The notes beneath the pieces were generated by a model. It did not search any database. It was not told the DNA's origin and saw only the letters and a program-made list of their open reading frames with translations. 9,071 nucleotides of DNA. Source: a virus. Its lineage: Duplodnaviria > Heunggongvirae > Uroviricota > Caudoviricetes. Where the stretch lies: the IMG/VR virus record IMGVR_UViG_2654587570_000008; one strand, 5' to 3'. The position numbers and the translations under genes are program-made. This document shows, in pieces, positions 1 through 5,748 of the stretch; positions within the stretch are counted from its first letter, which is position 1, and the number at the start of each line of letters is the position of its first letter.

Positions 1-888
1 ATGCCACTGCTGGATAAGCTGCGTGAGCAGTACGGGGTCGGACCGGTATGCAGTGAACTGCATATTGCCCCGTCAACGTATTACCACTGTCAGCAACAGC
101 GACATCATCCTGATAAACGCAGTGCCCGTGCTCAGCGCGATGACTGGCTGAAGAGAGAGATACAGCGCGTATACGATGAAAATCATCAGGTGTACGGTGT
201 GCGTAAAGTCTGGCGCCAGTTGTTACGCGAAGGTATCAGGGTGGCCAGATGTACAGTGGCGCGCCTCATGGCGGTTATGGGACTTGCCGGTGTTCTCCGG
301 GGTAAAAAGGTCCGTACTACCGTCAGCCGGAAAGCCGTTTCCGCATGCGACCGCGTAAACCGTCAGTTCGTGGCAGAACGTCCAGACCAGTTGTGGGTGG
401 CTGATTTTACCTGGGTAAGCACATGGCAGGGCTTCGTTTATGTGGCGTTCATCATTGATGTGTTCGCCGGATACATCGTGGGATGGCAGGTCTCATCATC
501 CATGGAAACAACATTCGTGCTGGATGCACTGGAGCAGGCGTTGTGGGCCCGTCGGCCGTCCGGCACAATCCATCACAGTGATAAAGGTTCTCAGTATGTA
601 TCGCTGGCCTACACGCAGCGGCTTAAGGAAGCCGGATTACTGGCATCAACAGGGAGTACTGGCGACTCGTATGACAACGCGATGGCGGAGAGCATCAATG
701 GTCTTTACAAAGCGGAGGTAATACACCGTAAGAGCTGGAAAAACCGTGCAGAAGTGGAACTGGCCACACTCACGTGGGTGGACTGGTATAACAATCGACG
801 ATTGCTGGAAAGGCTGGGCCATACTCCCCCGGCAGAAGCAGAAAAAGCTTATTATGCTTCCATCGGAAACGATGATCTGGCAGCCTGA
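1..888 (+). CDS. IS3-family transposase OrfB (DDE catalytic subunit)
   Basis: 295-aa ORF running from the window edge. The translation shows the IS3-family integrase-core pattern: D in WVADFTW, D in HHSDKGSQY, E in YDNAMAESINGLYK with K seven residues later. orfA and the frameshift site would lie upstream of position 1. Exact IS name not determinable by eye. Confidence 0.85.
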   Translation: MPLLDKLREQYGVGPVCSELHIAPSTYYHCQQQRHHPDKRSARAQRDDWLKREIQRVYDENHQVYGVRKVWRQLLREGIRVARCTVARLMAVMGLAGVLRGKKVRTTVSRKAVSACDRVNRQFVAERPDQLWVADFTWVSTWQGFVYVAFIIDVFAGYIVGWQVSSSMETTFVLDALEQALWARRPSGTIHHSDKGSQYVSLAYTQRLKEAGLLASTGSTGDSYDNAMAESINGLYKAEVIHRKSWKNRAEVELATLTWVDWYNNRRLLERLGHTPPAEAEKAYYASIGNDDLAA

Positions 889-893
889 GTTCA
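1..893 (+). mobile_element. 3' portion of an IS3-family insertion sequence; right terminus is approximate
   Basis: Contains orfB. IS3-family elements end within a few tens of bp of the orfB stop, usually in ...CA; the first ...TTCA after the stop is at 890-893. The true end could be up to about 60 bp further right, and no partner inverted repeat is available in the window. Confidence 0.55.
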
Positions 894-1312
894 CAGATAA
901 AACACTCTCCAGGAAACCCGGGGCGGTTCAGGCCGCCGGTCGTTATATTCGTTCGCATGAAGCCGTTCAGCACATCAGCATCCGCGACCGGCTGAATGAT
1001 TTTATGCAGCAGCACGGCACAGTACTGGCGGCCGCACTGGCACCGGAGCTGATGGGCTACAGTGAGCTGACGGCCATTGCCCGAAACTGTGCCATACAGC
1101 GTGCCACAGATGCCCTGCGTGAAGCCCTCCTGTCCTGGCTTGCGAAGGGTGAAAAAATTAATTATTCCGCACAGGATAGCGACATTTTAACGGCCATTGG
1201 ATTCAGACCTGACGCGGCTTCGGTGGATGACAGCCGTGAAAAATTCACCCCTGCGCAGAACATGATTTTTTCGCGTAAAAGTGCGCAACTGGCATCACGT
1301 CAGTCTGTGTAA
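894..1312 (+). pseudogene. 5'-truncated remnant of an unknown protein-coding gene, apparently interrupted by the IS3-family element
   Basis: The frame is open from 746 to the TAA at 1310-1312, but its first ~140 nt overlap orfB inside the IS in a different frame. No ATG with a Shine-Dalgarno follows the IS end. Composition is host-like (about 50% G+C by eye). Product not recognised. Confidence 0.35.
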
Positions 1313-1342
1313 AATTCCCCGAAAATCCGCCCGTTTTTACTG

Positions 1343-1376
1343 AAAAAAGCCATGCATCGATAAGGTGCATGGCTTT
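1343..1376. terminator. Candidate bidirectional intrinsic terminator
   Basis: Perfect 9-bp stem AGCCATGCA (1348-1356) / TGCATGGCT (1366-1374) with a 9-nt loop. It is preceded by A6 (1343-1348), giving U6 after the hairpin on the minus strand, and followed by TTT on the plus strand. It lies 35 nt after the stop at 1312. Confidence 0.4.
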
Positions 1377-1403
1377 GCATGCGTTTCCCTGCCTCATTTT
1401 CTG

Positions 1404-1431
1404 CAGACCGCGCCATTCCCGGCGCGGTCTG
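1404..1431. other. Perfect 11-bp GC-rich stem-loop with no adjacent T-tract
   Basis: CAGACCGCGCC (1404-1414) / GGCGCGGTCTG (1421-1431) with loop ATTCCC, inside a GC-rich ORF-free spacer. Function unknown (RNA stabiliser or protein-binding palindrome). Confidence 0.3.
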
Positions 1432-1702
1432 AGCGTGTCAGTGCAACTGCATTAAAACCGCCCCGCAAAGCGGGCGGGCGAGGCGGGGAAAGCACTGCGC
1501 GCCCGGTTGGTGCTCGTTACTAATGTTTTTTGCGCCCGAGCACCGTCGGGAAGGGGCTGGGGGGGGATAGGGGAGGTGCCTGACGTCGCGCGGTAATGTT
1601 GGTAAGTGTGCCGCTGATGGCTTCTGAGGGGAGTGGTAAATAGCCGCCTTTCGACGGTGTAGTGGGGAGAGTATTGCTTACAAACGTAATGAAATTGTTT
1701 GA

Positions 1703-1757
1703 GTAGCTAGGCTACTGCATAGGATTATTTTGTTCTGTTAATATATCCGTTAATATA
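1703..1757 (+). promoter_or_regulatory. Putative promoter/operator region of the two-gene cassette
   Basis: AT-rich block 30-80 bp upstream of the start at 1786/1792. Contains the palindrome GTAGC-TAG-GCTAC (1703-1715), two copies of GTTAATATA (1737-1745, 1749-1757) and weak sigma70-like hexamers (TTGTTC 1730-1735, TAATAT 1751-1756). Spacing is suboptimal, so this is a region call, not a mapped promoter. Confidence 0.3.
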
Positions 1758-1785
1758 GATAGATTGATCCAATTGAGTTTAAGGA

Positions 1786-2175
1786 ATGAGTATGTTTCAG
1801 ATATCAGCTGGAGTGTTCTTTGATTTAGATAAAATAGAAAAACACGATGGCACATTTGTTTTTTATTCAAATGTTGATGTGTCTTTCTCGGTGGAAAACA
1901 CCTCCCCTCTTTTTAAAGCAAATAAAATAAGTCATGATGGTATAAACTGTTATGTGGTAAACTATACTCTCCTGACCGAAAAACCAGAACGAATTGAAGC
2001 TGGAGTCGTAGTTAGGGCTGGTGATGAGGATTATAGGCAACAATTTATTTTATTATGGGAATTCTATTTTGATTGTGTGGCTAGAGTAGAAAAAGAATCG
2101 GTTAAAAAATATGTGCATTATCAAATTTTAATAAACATCACTCAAAAATTGCGCTTGAAGTTGCCCCATATTTAG
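1786..2175 (+). CDS. Hypothetical protein, 129 aa (cassette gene A); start may be the ATG at 1792
   Basis: ORF with an AAGGA Shine-Dalgarno at 1781-1785, better spaced for the ATG at 1792. Strongly AT-rich codon usage. Its TAG stop (2173-2175) shares one base with the GTG start of the next ORF. No recognisable motif or transmembrane segment. Confidence 0.6.
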   Translation: MSMFQISAGVFFDLDKIEKHDGTFVFYSNVDVSFSVENTSPLFKANKISHDGINCYVVNYTLLTEKPERIEAGVVVRAGDEDYRQQFILLWEFYFDCVARVEKESVKKYVHYQILINITQKLRLKLPHI

Positions 2176-3494
2176 TGGAGATTAACCGAAGAGTTTCATT
2201 TGATGATGTCTCTGGGTTTTCTGCTTTTATTAAAGATGTAGTGAATCTAAATAGATCTGCCTTTAAATCTTTAATGGCAGCGTTAAAAATAATTAGTGAT
2301 TCAAAAGAATCATTGTCAACCAACTTTGACCTGACTTATTCCATGTTAGTCTATGCCTTGGAGTCTTTGTCTCAAAGAAATGATAACTATAAGTCTGATT
2401 GGGATGACTACGATCAAAAAACCAGAGGTGAATTAGAGTCTGTATTTGAGCATATGCCTGGTGAGGATGTTTGTAAAATTAAATCAATACTTATTGAAGG
2501 CAAACAATTCAGATTACAAAAAAGGTTCAAAGATTTTATACTGAAAAATCTTGAAGAAAATTATTTCAATGAAACAGAGAGATATCCAATCCGCTATAGC
2601 TTCCTTAGTAGAGCTTTAGATAATTTATACAAAATCAGGTCTTCTTTTGTCCATGAGCTTAAGCCACTTGATGCAATGATCTCGAAAGCCTACAATCCTG
2701 TTGGTGATTGTCTGGTTCTTTTTGGCGAACCTCACTTCAGTTACTCTGGATTGCTTCGACTTCTTCGCCATGTGATAATAAATTTTTGCCGTAAAAACTA
2801 CAGTCAAAAAAGAGAGTATGTTAATTGGGTGATGGAAACATCGGGTGTAATGGTTGCAGAGATATCTGCACAATATTGGCTCTGGAATGCAGACGGATTT
2901 ACAGCTAAAAGTATAGCGAAGTGGTTTAGTGAATACCTAAATATGTTAAATTTAGGCGAAGTCACTGATTTGCAGTCTATCATGGACAAAATTGAGATAA
3001 TCTATGACCAATCCAAAAAAGAATATAAAAATGGGTTGTTGTATTTTTATTTCTTATATAACTTAATGCATAATGGAAATAAGGGTGAATGGCTTGAGTT
3101 TGCGAACAAGCGAAGTTCTATACTTGTTTGTGATATATATTGGTATTCATGCTCTCCATATTTATATAAATCATTTACTAATGTTTCAAATGGTATTGCT
3201 GATATAAAAACATTGAGAAACTTTTTGTCTTGTTTTAACGAATATGATAAAAATAAATTTAAGCCAAATCGTTTAAATCTCCCTGCAATGACCGAAGTAA
3301 TTATGTTGGCTTGCGCAGCAAATTCATTCTTCAGAATTGGAATGTATCAAGACTATGTTTTAATGGGCAATAGAGCGATGAGAGAAATTGCTTCAGTAAA
3401 AGATGTATTTTATTATATAAAAGAACGATTAAGTAATTCACAACTTATTGAATTGGACGAGTGCTTGAGATTGTATAGAAAAAAGGGGGGCTAA
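2175..3494 (+). CDS. Hypothetical protein, 439 aa (cassette gene B); possible HEPN-like Rx4H motif, unverified
   Basis: Long uninterrupted ORF in AT-rich DNA. It starts with GTG overlapping the upstream stop (TAGTG) and its stop TAA (3492-3494) overlaps the integrase stop. Contains R-SSFV-H at residues 155-160 (nt 2637-2654). No Walker A motif or transmembrane helix seen. Confidence 0.65.
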   Translation: MEINRRVSFDDVSGFSAFIKDVVNLNRSAFKSLMAALKIISDSKESLSTNFDLTYSMLVYALESLSQRNDNYKSDWDDYDQKTRGELESVFEHMPGEDVCKIKSILIEGKQFRLQKRFKDFILKNLEENYFNETERYPIRYSFLSRALDNLYKIRSSFVHELKPLDAMISKAYNPVGDCLVLFGEPHFSYSGLLRLLRHVIINFCRKNYSQKREYVNWVMETSGVMVAEISAQYWLWNADGFTAKSIAKWFSEYLNMLNLGEVTDLQSIMDKIEIIYDQSKKEYKNGLLYFYFLYNLMHNGNKGEWLEFANKRSSILVCDIYWYSCSPYLYKSFTNVSNGIADIKTLRNFLSCFNEYDKNKFKPNRLNLPAMTEVIMLACAANSFFRIGMYQDYVLMGNRAMREIASVKDVFYYIKERLSNSQLIELDECLRLYRKKGG

Positions 3495-3510
3495 CCCCTT
3501 TTATTTTTAA
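3483..3510. terminator. Candidate bidirectional terminator at the convergent gene ends
   Basis: Short GC stem GGGG (3487-3490) / CCCC (3495-3498) with loop CTAA, flanked by AAAA upstream and TTTTATTTTT downstream, so a U-tract follows the hairpin on both strands. The stem is short, so strength is doubtful. Confidence 0.35.
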
Positions 3511-4687
3511 CGTATTCACCCCACCAATCCATCAATTCAATTCGCTGCACGAGATAAGTAGAACGATTGTATGCTTTTCTAACTTCATTTTTATCACTGT
3601 GGGCTAAGGCAGACTCGATAACATCAGGATTTAATCCAGCTTCATTCATGGCTGTACTTGCTATTGAACGTAATCCATGGGCAACTAATTTTCCGCCAAA
3701 ACCAATACGTTTTAAAGCTGCATTTGCAGTCTGACTGTTCATTGGTTTCTTTGGGTCATTCCGACTCGGAAAAACATATTCACGATGAGCACTAATAGGC
3801 TTCATCACATTAAGAATCTCTAATGCCTGAGATGATAGAGGAATTATGTGTTCCCGTTTAGCCTTCATCCGTTCGGCAGGAATCGTCCAGAGCTTTGCAT
3901 GAAGATCGATTTCTTCCCACCGAGTACTGGAGGCTTCAGAAGGGCGCACAAGAGTCAGGAGTTGCCATTCAATTAGACAGCGAGTCGGGATAGACAGATT
4001 TGACATGACTAAAGAACGCATCAGCTTTGGTAATTCTTCAGGTCGAAGCGTCGGCATGTTTTGTTTTTTTGGCTTTTCGAAGGCCATGCCAACACCTGAT
4101 GCTGGGTTTGCATCAATCAAGCCAGTGTTAACCGCATAAATCATTATTTCGTTAATGCGTTGCACCAGACGACGTACAGTCTCTAATGCCCCACGAGCTT
4201 TGACTGGCTCAAGTGCTTCGACCAATGTTCTAGCTTTGATCTGCTGAACGGGCATCTCACCAACGGCGGGGAATACATCTTTTTCCAATGAGCGCCAAAT
4301 ATCTTTTGCATAATCAGGGGTAACACTTTTGCTTTTGAGCTGAAACCAATTAGCGGCGACCGTCGAGAAAATACTGTCCTGTGCGATTTGCTGCTGTTCC
4401 TCTGCAATTTCAGCTTGAATTTGCGGGTCAATTCCGTTGGCTAACAAGGAAAGGTAATCCGCTCTTAAGCGTCGGGCGTCAGCAAGTGAAAGGGCTGGGA
4501 AGGCTCCTAGCCCCATCATTGTCCGTTGCTTTGTTGCCGGACGTTGATAACGGAAACGCCATAACTTCTTACCGTTCGTTTTAACGAGTAGAAAAAGACC
4601 ATCGCCATCATGCAACGTTAGATCCTTTTCTAACGCTTTAGCGCGCAGTACTTCTGTGTTGGTCAGGGGGCGTGTCGTTCTTGCCAA
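3491..4687 (-). CDS. intA: P4-type (IntA-like) tyrosine integrase, site-specific recombinase
   Basis: 398-aa ORF. The N-terminus MARTTRPLT...DGDGLFLLV...KLWRFRY is typical of P4-family integrases, and the C-terminal catalytic region carries AHGLRSIAST (H-x-x-R) and a terminal Tyr in NRSTYL. It sits directly downstream of a tmRNA 3'-end att core, as intA does next to ssrA in E. coli K-12 CP4-57. Start codon is TTG (4685-4687) with an AAGGAG Shine-Dalgarno 8 nt upstream. Confidence 0.9.
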   Translation of the reverse strand: MARTTRPLTNTEVLRAKALEKDLTLHDGDGLFLLVKTNGKKLWRFRYQRPATKQRTMMGLGAFPALSLADARRLRADYLSLLANGIDPQIQAEIAEEQQQIAQDSIFSTVAANWFQLKSKSVTPDYAKDIWRSLEKDVFPAVGEMPVQQIKARTLVEALEPVKARGALETVRRLVQRINEIMIYAVNTGLIDANPASGVGMAFEKPKKQNMPTLRPEELPKLMRSLVMSNLSIPTRCLIEWQLLTLVRPSEASSTRWEEIDLHAKLWTIPAERMKAKREHIIPLSSQALEILNVMKPISAHREYVFPSRNDPKKPMNSQTANAALKRIGFGGKLVAHGLRSIASTAMNEAGLNPDVIESALAHSDKNEVRKAYNRSTYLVQRIELMDWWGEYVKNKRG

Positions 4688-4871: not shown

Positions 4872-4907
4872 TGGTGGAGCTGGCGGGAGTTGAACCCGTG
4901 TCTGAAA
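4872..4907 (-). other. Attachment-site remnant: 3'-terminal ~36 nt of a tmRNA (ssrA) gene, without the gene body
   Basis: The reverse complement of 4872-4898 reads CGGGTTCAACTCCCGCCAGCTCCACCA, the T-arm/acceptor 3' end of E. coli tmRNA as I recall it. Similarity continues with 2 mismatches to about 4907 and is then lost in AT-rich DNA, so this is a junction core, not an intact gene. Confidence 0.7.
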
Positions 4908-4936
4908 AATATTAACCTGTTGTTTTAATTATATAT

Positions 4937-5404
4937 TTATCTGAACATGGCGTTTGCGGCGCTTTTGCGTATCTTCTCTAGACCTTTTGTAGTCCATTTC
5001 TCTGGTACAGGTGTAAACCGTAGTGCAAAATCTGCCTCCATATTATCACCACTGAAACGTGCCACTCCACGTTCCAATTTTGTTTGCCAAGTGACTTTTT
5101 TAGTTTTACCCTCTATATCTTGATATTCAATAATTAATTTTGGACCAGTGAATGATGAAGAACCGACTAATTTAAGTCTATGTGAAAGATATGCTATATT
5201 CAATAGAATATCAATTGCCGCGGTTGGTACAAAAATGTTTTTTGACTTCTTATCTATACTATATGGTAACGAAAAATCAATATCGTAAGGTGTCGATAAA
5301 GTATTGTACATATATACTTTTCTTTCTTTTATTATTTTGAATATTCCATACTGGGAGTCGGTTGTAAAAGATTTATCTTCTTTTTTGAATTTTTTCGAAA
5401 ACAA
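4937..5404 (-). CDS. Hypothetical protein, 155 aa; probably the C-terminal part of a frameshifted membrane-anchored protein gene
   Basis: AT-rich ORF with no ATG (first start candidate is TTG at 5402-5404), lying 14 nt downstream of the preceding ORF in the -1 frame. No recognised domain. Confidence 0.45.
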   Translation of the reverse strand: MFSKKFKKEDKSFTTDSQYGIFKIIKERKVYMYNTLSTPYDIDFSLPYSIDKKSKNIFVPTAAIDILLNIAYLSHRLKLVGSSSFTGPKLIIEYQDIEGKTKKVTWQTKLERGVARFSGDNMEADFALRFTPVPEKWTTKGLEKIRKSAANAMFR

Positions 5405-5418
5405 CTCTAAATATAGAT

Positions 5419-5715
5419 TTATGTTTTTTTATAATTAAAATCCCAATGATATCTAAGTGAAATTGCCGCCCCCAATCCTATGTTTGAAAATTTTGTTTGT
5501 GGAAGCGTAGGGGCTTGTAAGATATCAACATGAAAACCGTTGAAATCGTTAACATTCATCTTGATATTTAAAGTGTCTATCACTAAATTGGGTTTATAAG
5601 AGAGCCTTCTTTGAAATATCGTTAACCATATTGCATATAATGCAGCAATTGCTGAAATGAAAGTACCAACTGAAGATATGTAGGTGATTAGTTTGTCGAA
5701 TGTAATTGTAATCAA
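5419..5715 (-). CDS. Hypothetical protein, 98 aa, with an N-terminal transmembrane helix; probably the N-terminal part of a frameshifted gene
   Basis: AT-rich ORF with a hydrophobic segment ITYISSVGTFISAIAALYAIWLTIF near the N-terminus. TTG start (5713-5715) preceded by GGGGA. Ends in TAA just after an A7 run on the coding strand (T7 at 5424-5430 on plus). Confidence 0.5.
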   Translation of the reverse strand: MITITFDKLITYISSVGTFISAIAALYAIWLTIFQRRLSYKPNLVIDTLNIKMNVNDFNGFHVDILQAPTLPQTKFSNIGLGAAISLRYHWDFNYKKT

Positions 5716-5720
5716 CTTTA

Positions 5721-5748
5721 AATCCCCGATTTTAAAAATGCGGGGATT
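5721..5748 (-). promoter_or_regulatory. Stem-loop immediately downstream of int that includes the Shine-Dalgarno of the next gene
   Basis: Perfect 8-bp stem AATCCCCG (5721-5728) / CGGGGATT (5741-5748) with a 12-nt AT-rich loop. It lies between the int stop (5757) and the downstream ORF start (5715); the GGGGA Shine-Dalgarno is part of the stem. Confidence 0.3.

Follow-up and report, generated by a model that had tools for sequence, protein, structure and literature searches.

An apparent two-gene cassette in a P4-like satellite is very probably one frameshifted gene for a candidate HEPN defence RNase

Positions 1792-3494 of the window, as the whole 9,071-nucleotide stretch of DNA analysed here is called (Caudoviricetes; IMG/VR record IMGVR_UViG_2654587570_000008), very probably make up one gene whose intact product is a candidate HEPN defence RNase, and whose copy in the window is most likely inactive. 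An initial annotation had described this AT-rich cassette as two translationally coupled genes of no nameable family, which might form an undescribed defence or toxin-antitoxin module. The candidate system is not a new two-component one; it is a single anti-phage RNase candidate already catalogued in P4-like satellites. The broken gene comprises the following parts:

1792..2175, + strand: 5' fragment of the broken HEPN-TPR gene ("gene A"), with codons 1-105, from the N-terminal alpha/beta domain, followed by 22 out-of-frame codons and TAG
2104..2109, + strand: A6 tract that has lost one base relative to the A7 of intact alleles, located by alignment with ATCC 8739
2175..3494, + strand: 3' part of the same gene ("gene B"), codons 129-567 of the intact protein, placed by homologue alignment

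The two co-directional open reading frames (ORFs) are present as described, at 1786-2175 (129 aa) and 2175-3494 (439 aa) on the + strand, and the stop of the first (TAG, 2173-2175) shares a base with the start of the second (GTG, 2175-2177). They are not two genes, however. When the one A missing relative to Escherichia coli ATCC 8739 is restored, 1792-3494 becomes a single 567-aa ORF encoding WP_000486482.1, and the relatives of this protein are likewise fused. The window gene is 99.8% identical to the ATCC 8739 allele at the DNA level, the only indel being A7 there and A6 in the window, and the ATCC 8739 annotation at this locus is one 1704-nt CDS. All 19 of the 19 complete E. coli genomes that contain most of the stretch give an alignment one base longer than the window. 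The frameshift falls after codon 105 and leaves a 127-aa N-terminal fragment and the 439-aa ORF, with the original reading frame picking up again at 2110, ahead of the ORF B start at 2175. Because the stop of the shifted frame chances to fall on V129, a GTG codon in the original frame, the overlap that had suggested translational coupling is a by-product of a 1-bp homopolymer deletion.

The true start is more likely ATG 1792, two codons inside the initially assigned 1786, because it is preceded by AAGGA at a distance of 6 nt, every homologue starts with MFQIS or MLQIS, and both RefSeq and Prodigal call this codon. No Shine-Dalgarno sequence was found ahead of GTG 2175. The broken tract is the sole homopolymer of at least 7 in the intact allele; E. 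coli and Enterobacter have A7 at this site and Klebsiella has A8, whereas other bases break up the run in Pectobacterium (GTGAAAAAGAT) and Vibrio (CAGAAGAT). A programmed frameshift at a conserved slippery site was rejected because the tract is not kept across genera.

Homology searches place the restored protein in a large family of single polypeptides that lies outside Pfam, NCBIfam and PHROGs. There are 769 family representatives at E<=1e-3, and 119 of the best 150 span 547-678 aa. ORFs of such length at 33% G+C, with hundreds of homologues, are not a product of chance. In 37 full-length homologues the alignment runs end to end across the break, and V104, I107 and C108 at the junction are invariant or nearly so. 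Natural fissions and forms without the N-terminal domain were sought among the family representatives, and those inspected (P0181 and P0122) proved to be cut by contig ends. Each relative examined is a single fused polypeptide, no neighbouring gene is conserved, and the neighbours differ in each genus examined. The proposed pairing of a small partner with a larger effector thus finds no counterpart, and the separate gene pair co-occurs in no other genome examined, a result that the initial annotation had itself named as counting against its proposal. The family is not typical phage cargo, since a tblastn search against phage genomes gave one distant partial match (24.5% identity over 45% of the query).

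The intact protein begins with a beta-rich alpha/beta domain (residues ~1-110), joined to the remainder by a linker with pLDDT <50 at residues 111-118. The downstream part encodes:

2181..2810, + strand: HEPN RNase domain, residues ~131-340 of the intact protein
2637..2654, + strand: codons of R283-S-S-F-V-H288, the Rx4H catalytic motif of HEPN RNases, conserved in homologues
2901..3491, + strand: putative C-terminal TPR-like alpha-helical repeats, residues ~371-567, the most variable part and presumed sensor

All 37 aligned homologues retain R283, S284, V287 and H288, and the helical-bundle fold superposes on solved HEPN domains. Profile matches are confined to ApeA-type HEPN models. For example, the PADLOC model "Cas13-ApeA" gives a weak match (7.3e-6) over residues 148-273, and Pfam HEPN_Apea reaches at most 16.8 bits in 10 of 37 members, below its gathering cut-off of 24.4. 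Neither Pfam nor NCBIfam matched P0001 itself; no Pfam, NCBIfam or PHROGs family scored above threshold with either ORF or with the restored protein; profile searching of the full set of PDB sequences yielded no match even at E<=10; and ApeA chains were absent from the results of both sequence and fold searches of the PDB. The view that no family could be named therefore held for Pfam, NCBIfam and PHROGs above threshold, but gave way to the weak PADLOC match and to the fold comparison, by which the larger ORF has a recognisable HEPN domain. The N-terminal and HEPN domains are conserved about equally and the C-terminal part is variable, a sequence pattern presumed to reflect an effector and a sensor.

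The closest known counterpart is the "HEPN-TPR" candidate carried by plasmid pFR83, which represents the same locus, the same protein (WP_000486482.1) and the same psu-int position (Rousset et al., 2022; PMC9122126). In contrast to that intact published allele, the window copy is frameshifted by its A6 tract, and its satellite has a psu truncated by an IS3-family element. Other HEPN systems share parts of the architecture. DARNA, or PD-T7-3, is likewise a single protein with an Rx4H HEPN domain followed by helical repeats (~300 aa in DARNA), and its 456 aa approximate the size of the 439-aa HEPN-TPR portion described here (bioRxiv 10.64898/2026.02.22.705581). DARNA is an abortive-infection tRNA anticodon nuclease whose helical repeats act as the sensor; its trigger, ssDNA presented by phage SSB, and its dodecameric state are established for DARNA only (bioRxiv 10.64898/2026.02.22.705581). 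However, the DARNA HEPN domain lies at the extreme N-terminus, whereas here it starts near residue 131 behind an extra conserved alpha/beta domain of ~110 aa, and the PD-T7-3 model is absent among the PADLOC matches at E<=1, which sets the protein outside DARNA.

ApeA, too, is a HEPN defence protein that is encoded by one gene and has a comparable length (Gao et al., 2020; bioRxiv 10.64898/2026.01.26.701840), and HEPN_Apea entries occur in P4 hotspots as well (Rousset et al., 2022, Table S1A; PMC9122126). It forms a doughnut-shaped decamer or dodecamer with a deoxydinucleotide ligand pocket and cleaves tRNA anticodons (bioRxiv 10.64898/2026.01.26.701840). ApeA carries its HEPN domain at the C-terminus (catalytic R502 or R521), behind N-terminal and Mid helical domains. 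The protein described here departs from this order, with a central HEPN domain (R283) preceded by a beta-rich N-terminal domain and followed by a TPR-like tail of ~200 aa, and with no catalytic Arg at ~500-520. HepT, AbiV, the AbiA C-terminal domain, Csm6/Csx1 and LsoA, at 4-17% identity, differ further in being either small toxins paired with antitoxins or domains that belong to other multi-domain systems.

The genomic position of the gene agrees with the initial proposal of hotspot cargo beside a P4-type integrase, as the gene occupies the psu-int interval of a P4-like satellite integrated at ssrA, a slot of variable content (PMC9122126). The borders of this slot are:

854..1312, + strand: psu 3' remnant (P4 polarity suppression / capsid decoration gene), Pfam Psu 7.7e-62 over profile positions 59-181 of 182
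1313..1501, + strand: conserved P4 sequence 3' of psu, ahead of the variable cargo, recognised from shared insert starts in Rousset Table S2B
3491..4687, - strand: P4-type tyrosine integrase, right hotspot border, with Pfam Arm-DNA-bind_3, Phage_int_M and Phage_integrase

The psu remnant is the left border of the hotspot, and ATCC 8739 has an intact psu at the same site within a full satellite (primase, AlpA, sid-like, delta, psu). A Pectobacterium P4-like satellite carries a homologue in the same psu-int slot. The cassette is compositionally foreign, as initially stated, with a G+C content of 0.330, whereas the integrase has 0.452 and bases 1-1500 have 0.545.

Describing the module as new overstated the case, since the locus had been recorded by Rousset et al. 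(2022; PMC9122126) and by DefensePredictor. The intact ATCC 8739 allele is catalogued as a P4 hotspot locus (Table S1A), and the one-gene candidate "HEPN-TPR" corresponds to pFR83, the ATCC 8739 allele with its native promoter (Table S2B; PMC9122126). The first 110 nt of the pFR83 insert match window positions 1224-1333 exactly. The candidate appears under "additional tested systems" in Table S2B, outside the seven validated ones (PMC9122126), a listing that is the family's one published test, made on a small phage panel. Literature searches turned up neither WP_000486482.1 nor "HEPN-TPR" in a main text; the information is confined to supplementary tables.

The intact protein may be no anti-phage system and may serve the satellite in another way, such as helper-phage exploitation, RNA processing or inter-element competition, a reading that we consider unlikely. 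It would fit the repeated loss of the gene and the native-promoter construct, for which no protection was reported against eight coliphages or P2-like phages (PMC9122126), TIR-NLR being the only system that protected against P2-like phages in that study. However, small phage panels often miss activity, as authors in the field have noted (PMC13586616), and many of the cargos tested from the psu-int slot are defensive (PMC9122126; PMC13586616). Homologues in unrelated genomes also keep defensive company, adjoining Gabija in Vibrio navarrensis and SIR2-HerA in Aeromonas media, and DefensePredictor scores the gene as defensive (mean log-odds 7.09, "Predicted novel defense gene"). A role as a defence effector is thus plausible for the intact protein because of its HEPN RNase fold and defence-island neighbours. 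The proposal of a defence module survives in this form, with a plausible effector, but loses its two-component architecture. Beyond this locus, the HEPN-TPR family comprises 769 representative clusters, recurs in defence contexts and is predicted to be defensive by machine learning.

To judge from its parallels with ApeA, DARNA, AbiV and HepT, the intact protein is probably a single-protein abortive-infection RNase. Its HEPN domains would form dimers with a composite active site that is off at rest. The variable TPR-like domain, possibly together with the N-terminal domain, might then sense a phage-derived cue and activate the enzyme, which would cut tRNA or mRNA and stop translation. The intact family could add another HEPN immune sensor and reveal the cues that its N-terminal and TPR-like domains sense. 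A further-reaching proposal holds that the abortive-infection RNase is activated unlike ApeA and DARNA, through its N-terminal domain and a fast-evolving TPR-like sensor, and that the junction breaks either turn the gene off reversibly or split it viably into two polypeptides, allowing the satellite to silence a costly immune gene; as a whole, we judge it improbable.

The window copy itself is most likely inactive, because the conserved N-terminal domain is severed, GTG 2175 lacks a Shine-Dalgarno sequence, and the satellite is decaying. Insertion of an IS3-family element has truncated psu here, and an IS21 element lies upstream in the sister assembly L003. Elsewhere the same gene has been disrupted independently by insertion of IS1, by insertion of IS5 and by two further 1-bp deletions. 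One of these deletions, in L002, is an independent A7 to A6 change in an allele with just 92% DNA identity; the other, in L008, lies 48 nt downstream in a third allele (87%). Such repeated, independent inactivation is relevant to the debated question of whether defences at hotspots degenerate where they sit or are exchanged while still intact (PMC13586616).

The recurrence of breaks at one place could instead mean that the split is tolerated or selected, either as reversible ON/OFF switching at A7 (a contingency locus) or as a viable fission maintained by reinitiation, slippage or frameshifting. All three 1-bp breaks are located at the low-confidence linker that joins the N-terminal domain to HEPN, and a neighbouring cargo gene in the window likewise varies in a homopolymer count (T7/T8) among near-identical sister assemblies. 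However, A7, as the longest homopolymer of the gene, is the expected mutational hotspot, and the tract is not conserved in the Pectobacterium or Vibrio homologues. Runs of 6-7 A fall short of the length that favours efficient slippage. The clustering is also partly an ascertainment effect, because any -1 shift in a wide zone before V129 yields the same 439-aa ORF call, and destruction by IS1 and IS5 elsewhere points to plain loss. We therefore regard a tolerated or selected split as distinctly improbable, and plain inactivation remains the preferred reading of the window copy.

A genuine toxin-antitoxin or defence operon, in which the small protein A neutralises or regulates the larger protein B via translational coupling, is extremely improbable: both ORFs and their TAG/GTG overlap exist, and gene callers report two genes on this contig and its sisters, but the overlap was made by the deletion, the final 22 codons of ORF A are out-of-frame sequence, GTG 2175 has no ribosome-binding motif before it, and neither a two-gene state nor a conserved neighbour occurs in any relative. 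It is just as improbable that the A was dropped in sequencing or assembly and that the strain itself has an unbroken gene; errors of this kind are common in homopolymers, and the second cargo gene differs from the sister assemblies at T7/T8, but A6 recurs in every other retrieved assembly of the lineage (L003, L005, L006 and L007, assembled separately), including a 5.3-Mb contig, and the exact ORF A and ORF B sequences are found on 14 and 6 contigs, respectively, from NCBI, Logan and ENA. The split is a heritable single-base loss in this E. coli lineage. An apparently translationally coupled pair in AT-rich cargo can thus be a homopolymer frameshift, which one comparison with a sister genome resolves.

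Three further features complete the map:

1..888, + strand: IS3-family transposase orfB, Pfam rve/HTH_21 on the identical contig L004, with the ALIL frameshift pseudoknot RF01497 at 1-72
3481..3502, no strand assigned: hairpin AAAAGGGGGG-CTAA-CCCCTTTT, spanning the stop codons of both the cargo gene and int
4872..4907, - strand: 3' end of ssrA (tmRNA), 36 nt, satellite att remnant, from collinearity up to 4907 with ATCC 8739, where ssrA is annotated

On the left, cloned inserts of several different P4 hotspot systems begin with this same 1313-1501 sequence (Rousset et al., 2022, Table S2B; PMC9122126), which in the window includes a G+C-rich, terminator-like hairpin at 1458-1477. A promoter scan of 1300-3600 found sites no more numerous than in shuffled sequence, and no promoter is claimed. 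On the right, the gene meets int tail to tail, as initially noted, its stop TAA (3492-3494, + strand) overlapping that of int, which reads CTA at 3491-3493 on the + strand and TAG on the - strand. The same 4-nt overlap between cargo gene and int is present in Pectobacterium, and the hairpin across both stops is likely a bidirectional terminator. The Rfam tmRNA match at 4872-4947 is weak. A second prophage begins past the ssrA remnant (4907).

The AT-rich stretch at 1786-3494 holds a single-gene HEPN-TPR defence candidate, already catalogued but still uncharacterised, in a copy disrupted by a frameshift; it lies in a known hotspot. The initial annotation, which saw in it a coupled pair of genes as a candidate undescribed defence or toxin-antitoxin module, was accurate in observation yet misread what was observed. 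The window is E. coli DNA and carries the following features:

1-888, + strand: IS3-family transposase orfB, with an ALIL frameshift pseudoknot (RF01497) at 1-72
up to 1312, + strand: 3' part of psu, the P4 polarity-suppression gene (Pfam Psu, 7.7e-62)
1786-3494, + strand: the AT-rich stretch in question
3491-4687, - strand: P4-type integrase
4872-4907: 36-nt remnant of the ssrA 3' end
4937-5715, - strand: second AT-rich cargo gene
5757-6929: second integrase, of the Arm-DNA-bind_2 type; prophage genes are also present

Both open reading frames of the supposed pair, of 129 and 439 aa, are present in the sequence. The stop TAG at 2173-2175 has its G in common with GTG at 2175-2177, and the convergent stops of cargo and integrase overlap at 3491-3494, within a hairpin at 3481-3502. 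The drop in G+C is likewise clear (0.330 in the cassette; the integrase has 0.452 and the first 1.5 kb 0.545). The upstream frame was placed slightly too early: the true start of the cargo gene is probably ATG 1792 rather than 1786, because AAGGA lies 6 nt upstream, homologues all start with MFQIS or MLQIS, and RefSeq and Prodigal agree.

When window positions 1600-3600 were compared by megablast with 5,426 complete E. coli genomes, the stretch was found in 20 of them at 99.7-99.9% identity. In all 19 genomes holding most of it, the aligned subject is one base longer than the query; one also has an IS1 insertion. E. coli ATCC 8739 is annotated there with one 1704-nt CDS, whose 567-aa product (WP_000486482.1) is labelled 'hypothetical protein'. 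Compared base by base, the stretch differs from that of ATCC 8739 by four substitutions and one indel, a run of six A (A6, 2104-2109) versus seven (A7) in ATCC 8739. With the seventh A put back, 1792-3494 is an open reading frame throughout; without it, reading leaves the original frame after codon 105 and continues for 22 codons to TAG 2173-2175. This new stop by chance overlaps the V129 codon (GTG) of the intact gene, at which an ORF finder begins a second gene because it is the first start codon past the last stop in frame. The proposed translational coupling is therefore a by-product of the frameshift, and no Shine-Dalgarno-like sequence was found upstream of GTG 2175. Two separate genes are not what the stretch contains, since one A joins the frame and full-length homologues are all fused; it is almost certainly a single gene broken by a frameshift.

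A read error is unlikely as the cause of A6, because A6 is found in every other retrieved assembly of the lineage (L003, which includes a 5.3-Mb contig; L005; L006; L007) and the exact products recur in NCBI, Logan and ENA sources, the 127-aa product on 14 contigs and the 439-aa product on 6. The frameshift is genuine and heritable. An identical A7 to A6 deletion is found in an allele of only 92% DNA identity, and another 1-bp deletion lies 48 nt downstream in an 87% allele. The A7 tract is the sole homopolymer of at least 7 in the E. coli allele and is not kept in Pectobacterium or Vibrio, for which reasons a conserved slippery signal was rejected and the tract is better read as a mutational hotspot.

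A word-indexed search recovered 54 homologues, the full-length members of which (560-584 aa) span the query in full. The genera represented are Escherichia, Enterobacter, Klebsiella, Pantoea, Pectobacterium, Vibrio, Photobacterium, Aeromonas, Ferrimonas and Vreelandella, and a single shorter homologue is from Paenibacillus. Searched exhaustively with a profile, 1.84 billion representatives yielded 769 proteins at E<=1e-3, of which 376 reach E<=1e-30. Among the 150 best representatives, 119 are 547-678 aa long, and most of these 119 match from the first profile positions to past position 500; two shorter ones that seemingly lack the N-terminal domain were inspected, and both are cut by contig ends. 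Over the frameshift site, an alignment of 37 sequences has no break, V104 and C108 being invariant and I107 nearly so. A fused single polypeptide is thus the family's universal state.

An AlphaFold2 model built from this alignment (mean pLDDT 86.4, confident) comprises a beta-rich N-terminal domain with two helices (~1-110), a low-confidence linker (111-118), a helical middle domain (~131-340) and a helical repeat region (~371-567). The middle domain contains RSSFVH, in which R283, S284, V287 and H288 are invariant in 37/37 sequences and which is the Rx4H signature of HEPN RNases. PADLOC 'Cas13-ApeA' gives weak sequence-profile support (7.3e-6 over residues 148-273), and Pfam HEPN_Apea matches 10 of the 37 members, at best with 16.8 bits, below the cut-off of 24.4. 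The intact protein has both the motif and the fold of HEPN. The assignment of the middle domain to HEPN is held with high confidence. Between E. coli and Vibrio, identity is 44-49% in the N-terminal domain and HEPN and 28-30% in the C-terminal repeats, a pattern that would be expected if a conserved effector were fused to a sensor that evolves quickly.

The window copy is most likely dead, because the frameshift cuts off a domain whose conservation equals that of the catalytic domain, the downstream frame lacks a ribosome-binding site, and the host satellite is decaying, with psu cut by an IS3-family element and an IS21 upstream in L003. The break, which lies just ahead of the linker, might instead be an OFF switch or a tolerated fission between domains; nothing in the data requires such a reading, and it is considered very improbable. 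The HEPN-TPR gene has also been lost repeatedly elsewhere: besides the two deletions in divergent alleles, in two complete E. coli genomes it is broken by an IS1A insertion in strain SCPM-O-B-7615 (NZ_CP144926.1; locus L014, 3193-5675) and truncated by ISKpn26 (IS5-like) in strain TOK-001 (NZ_AP018395.1; locus L015, 4835-5590); RefSeq labels these fragments ordinary hypothetical proteins, not pseudogenes.

The corresponding segment of ATCC 8739 holds an entire P4-like satellite, in the order primase, AlpA-type regulator, sid-like gene, delta, psu, cargo and int, and this satellite abuts ssrA and smpB directly. In the window lineage the satellite is degraded, as the IS3-family insertion (window 1-1312) has removed approximately the first 58 codons of psu, and in L003 the AlpA-type and sid-like genes are separated by an IS21 element (istA/istB).

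In P4-like satellites, the interval between psu and int is a hotspot for anti-phage systems, as defined by Rousset et al. (2022, PMC9122126), and the placement of the stretch as cargo of this hotspot holds. Pectobacterium brasiliense carries its homologue at the equivalent position of a P4-like satellite at ssrA/smpB, where it again overlaps int by 4 nt. Other homologues lie in an island remnant near smpB (Enterobacter asburiae), in a variable island with a resolvase (Klebsiella), in an integrase-bounded island beside SIR2 and a HerA-like DUF87 gene (Aeromonas media), and next to a Gabija-type pair of an OLD-like ATPase/TOPRIM gene and a UvrD helicase gene (Vibrio navarrensis). In the Vibrio island (CP051101.1; locus L013, 3131-7492), the Gabija-like ATPase/TOPRIM gene is IS-interrupted, with an rve transposase between its halves, and a large trypsin/NPHP3_N NTPase gene is also present. 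Across the Pectobacterium, Enterobacter, Klebsiella, Vibrio and Aeromonas loci, no partner gene consistently accompanies the family; a two-gene toxin-antitoxin or other two-component system does not describe a single polypeptide with no co-travelling partner.

Nor is the module undescribed, as the intact allele is catalogued in the tables of two studies. NC_010468/WP_000486482 is among the hotspot loci of Table S1A of Rousset et al. (2022), and Table S2B ('additional tested systems') lists pFR83, 'HEPN-TPR', as a one-gene P4 locus from E. coli ATCC 8739 (PMC9122126). The first 110 nt of the pFR83 insert match window 1224-1333 exactly. Validated systems appear in Table S2A, seven of the P4 systems having given protection from one or more of eight coliphages; P2-like phages were countered by a TIR-NLR system only (PMC9122126). 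Because pFR83 stands in Table S2B and the validated systems in Table S2A, the intact allele is an already recognised one-gene candidate for which no protection is reported. DefensePredictor gives WP_000486482.1 a mean log-odds of 7.09 ('Predicted novel defense gene', Table S5), and the protein is absent from the screened units of Table S6 (PMC13092281). No main-text mention of the HEPN-TPR protein was found in the literature.

A defence role of the intact protein is somewhat favoured. By analogy with the characterised HEPN immunity proteins ApeA, DARNA/PD-T7-3, AbiV and HepT, it would probably dimerise via HEPN, forming a composite RNase site that is kept inactive. Activation would follow when the TPR-like region, perhaps together with the N-terminal domain, senses a signal that derives from the phage, and the activated protein would cleave tRNA or mRNA and thereby abort infection. 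ApeA is a decameric tRNA anticodon nuclease activated by deoxydinucleotides (bioRxiv 10.64898/2026.01.26.701840), and DARNA/PD-T7-3, a dodecamer activated by ssDNA, combines an N-terminal HEPN with a helical sensor (bioRxiv 10.64898/2026.02.22.705581). The HEPN-TPR protein falls outside both groups: its HEPN is central, whereas that of ApeA is C-terminal, and its HEPN_Apea score is sub-threshold; it has no DARNA profile match and an extra N-terminal domain. Even so, its mode of action may well resemble theirs. The window finding itself is ordinary, and the intact family would be worth screening against a larger range of phages.

Downstream, the window records a tandem integration at ssrA (4872-6929). 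Just the last 36 nt of ssrA follow the P4-type integrase, and no tmRNA was found in the window by ARAGORN. The second element starts past this remnant, with its own integrase (5757-6929) and a xis-like gene; in this second prophage, an Rfam match to the sRNA STnc100 at 8469-8683 (- strand) scores 42.1 bits, just below the gathering threshold of 47 (E 1.3e-6). The second cargo gene (G+C ~0.28-0.31), between the ssrA remnant and the second integrase, is split in the window into 155-aa and 98-aa frames. In the sister assemblies L005 (4104-4883) and L007 (4006-4785), it is one 259-aa frame whose product has a hydrophobic helix at its N-terminus; what sets them apart is a T7 versus T8 run at window 5423, in assemblies that are >99.96% identical. 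Its product has no match in Pfam, PADLOC or NCBIfam and matches phrog_7259 (unknown function) at 2.1e-85.
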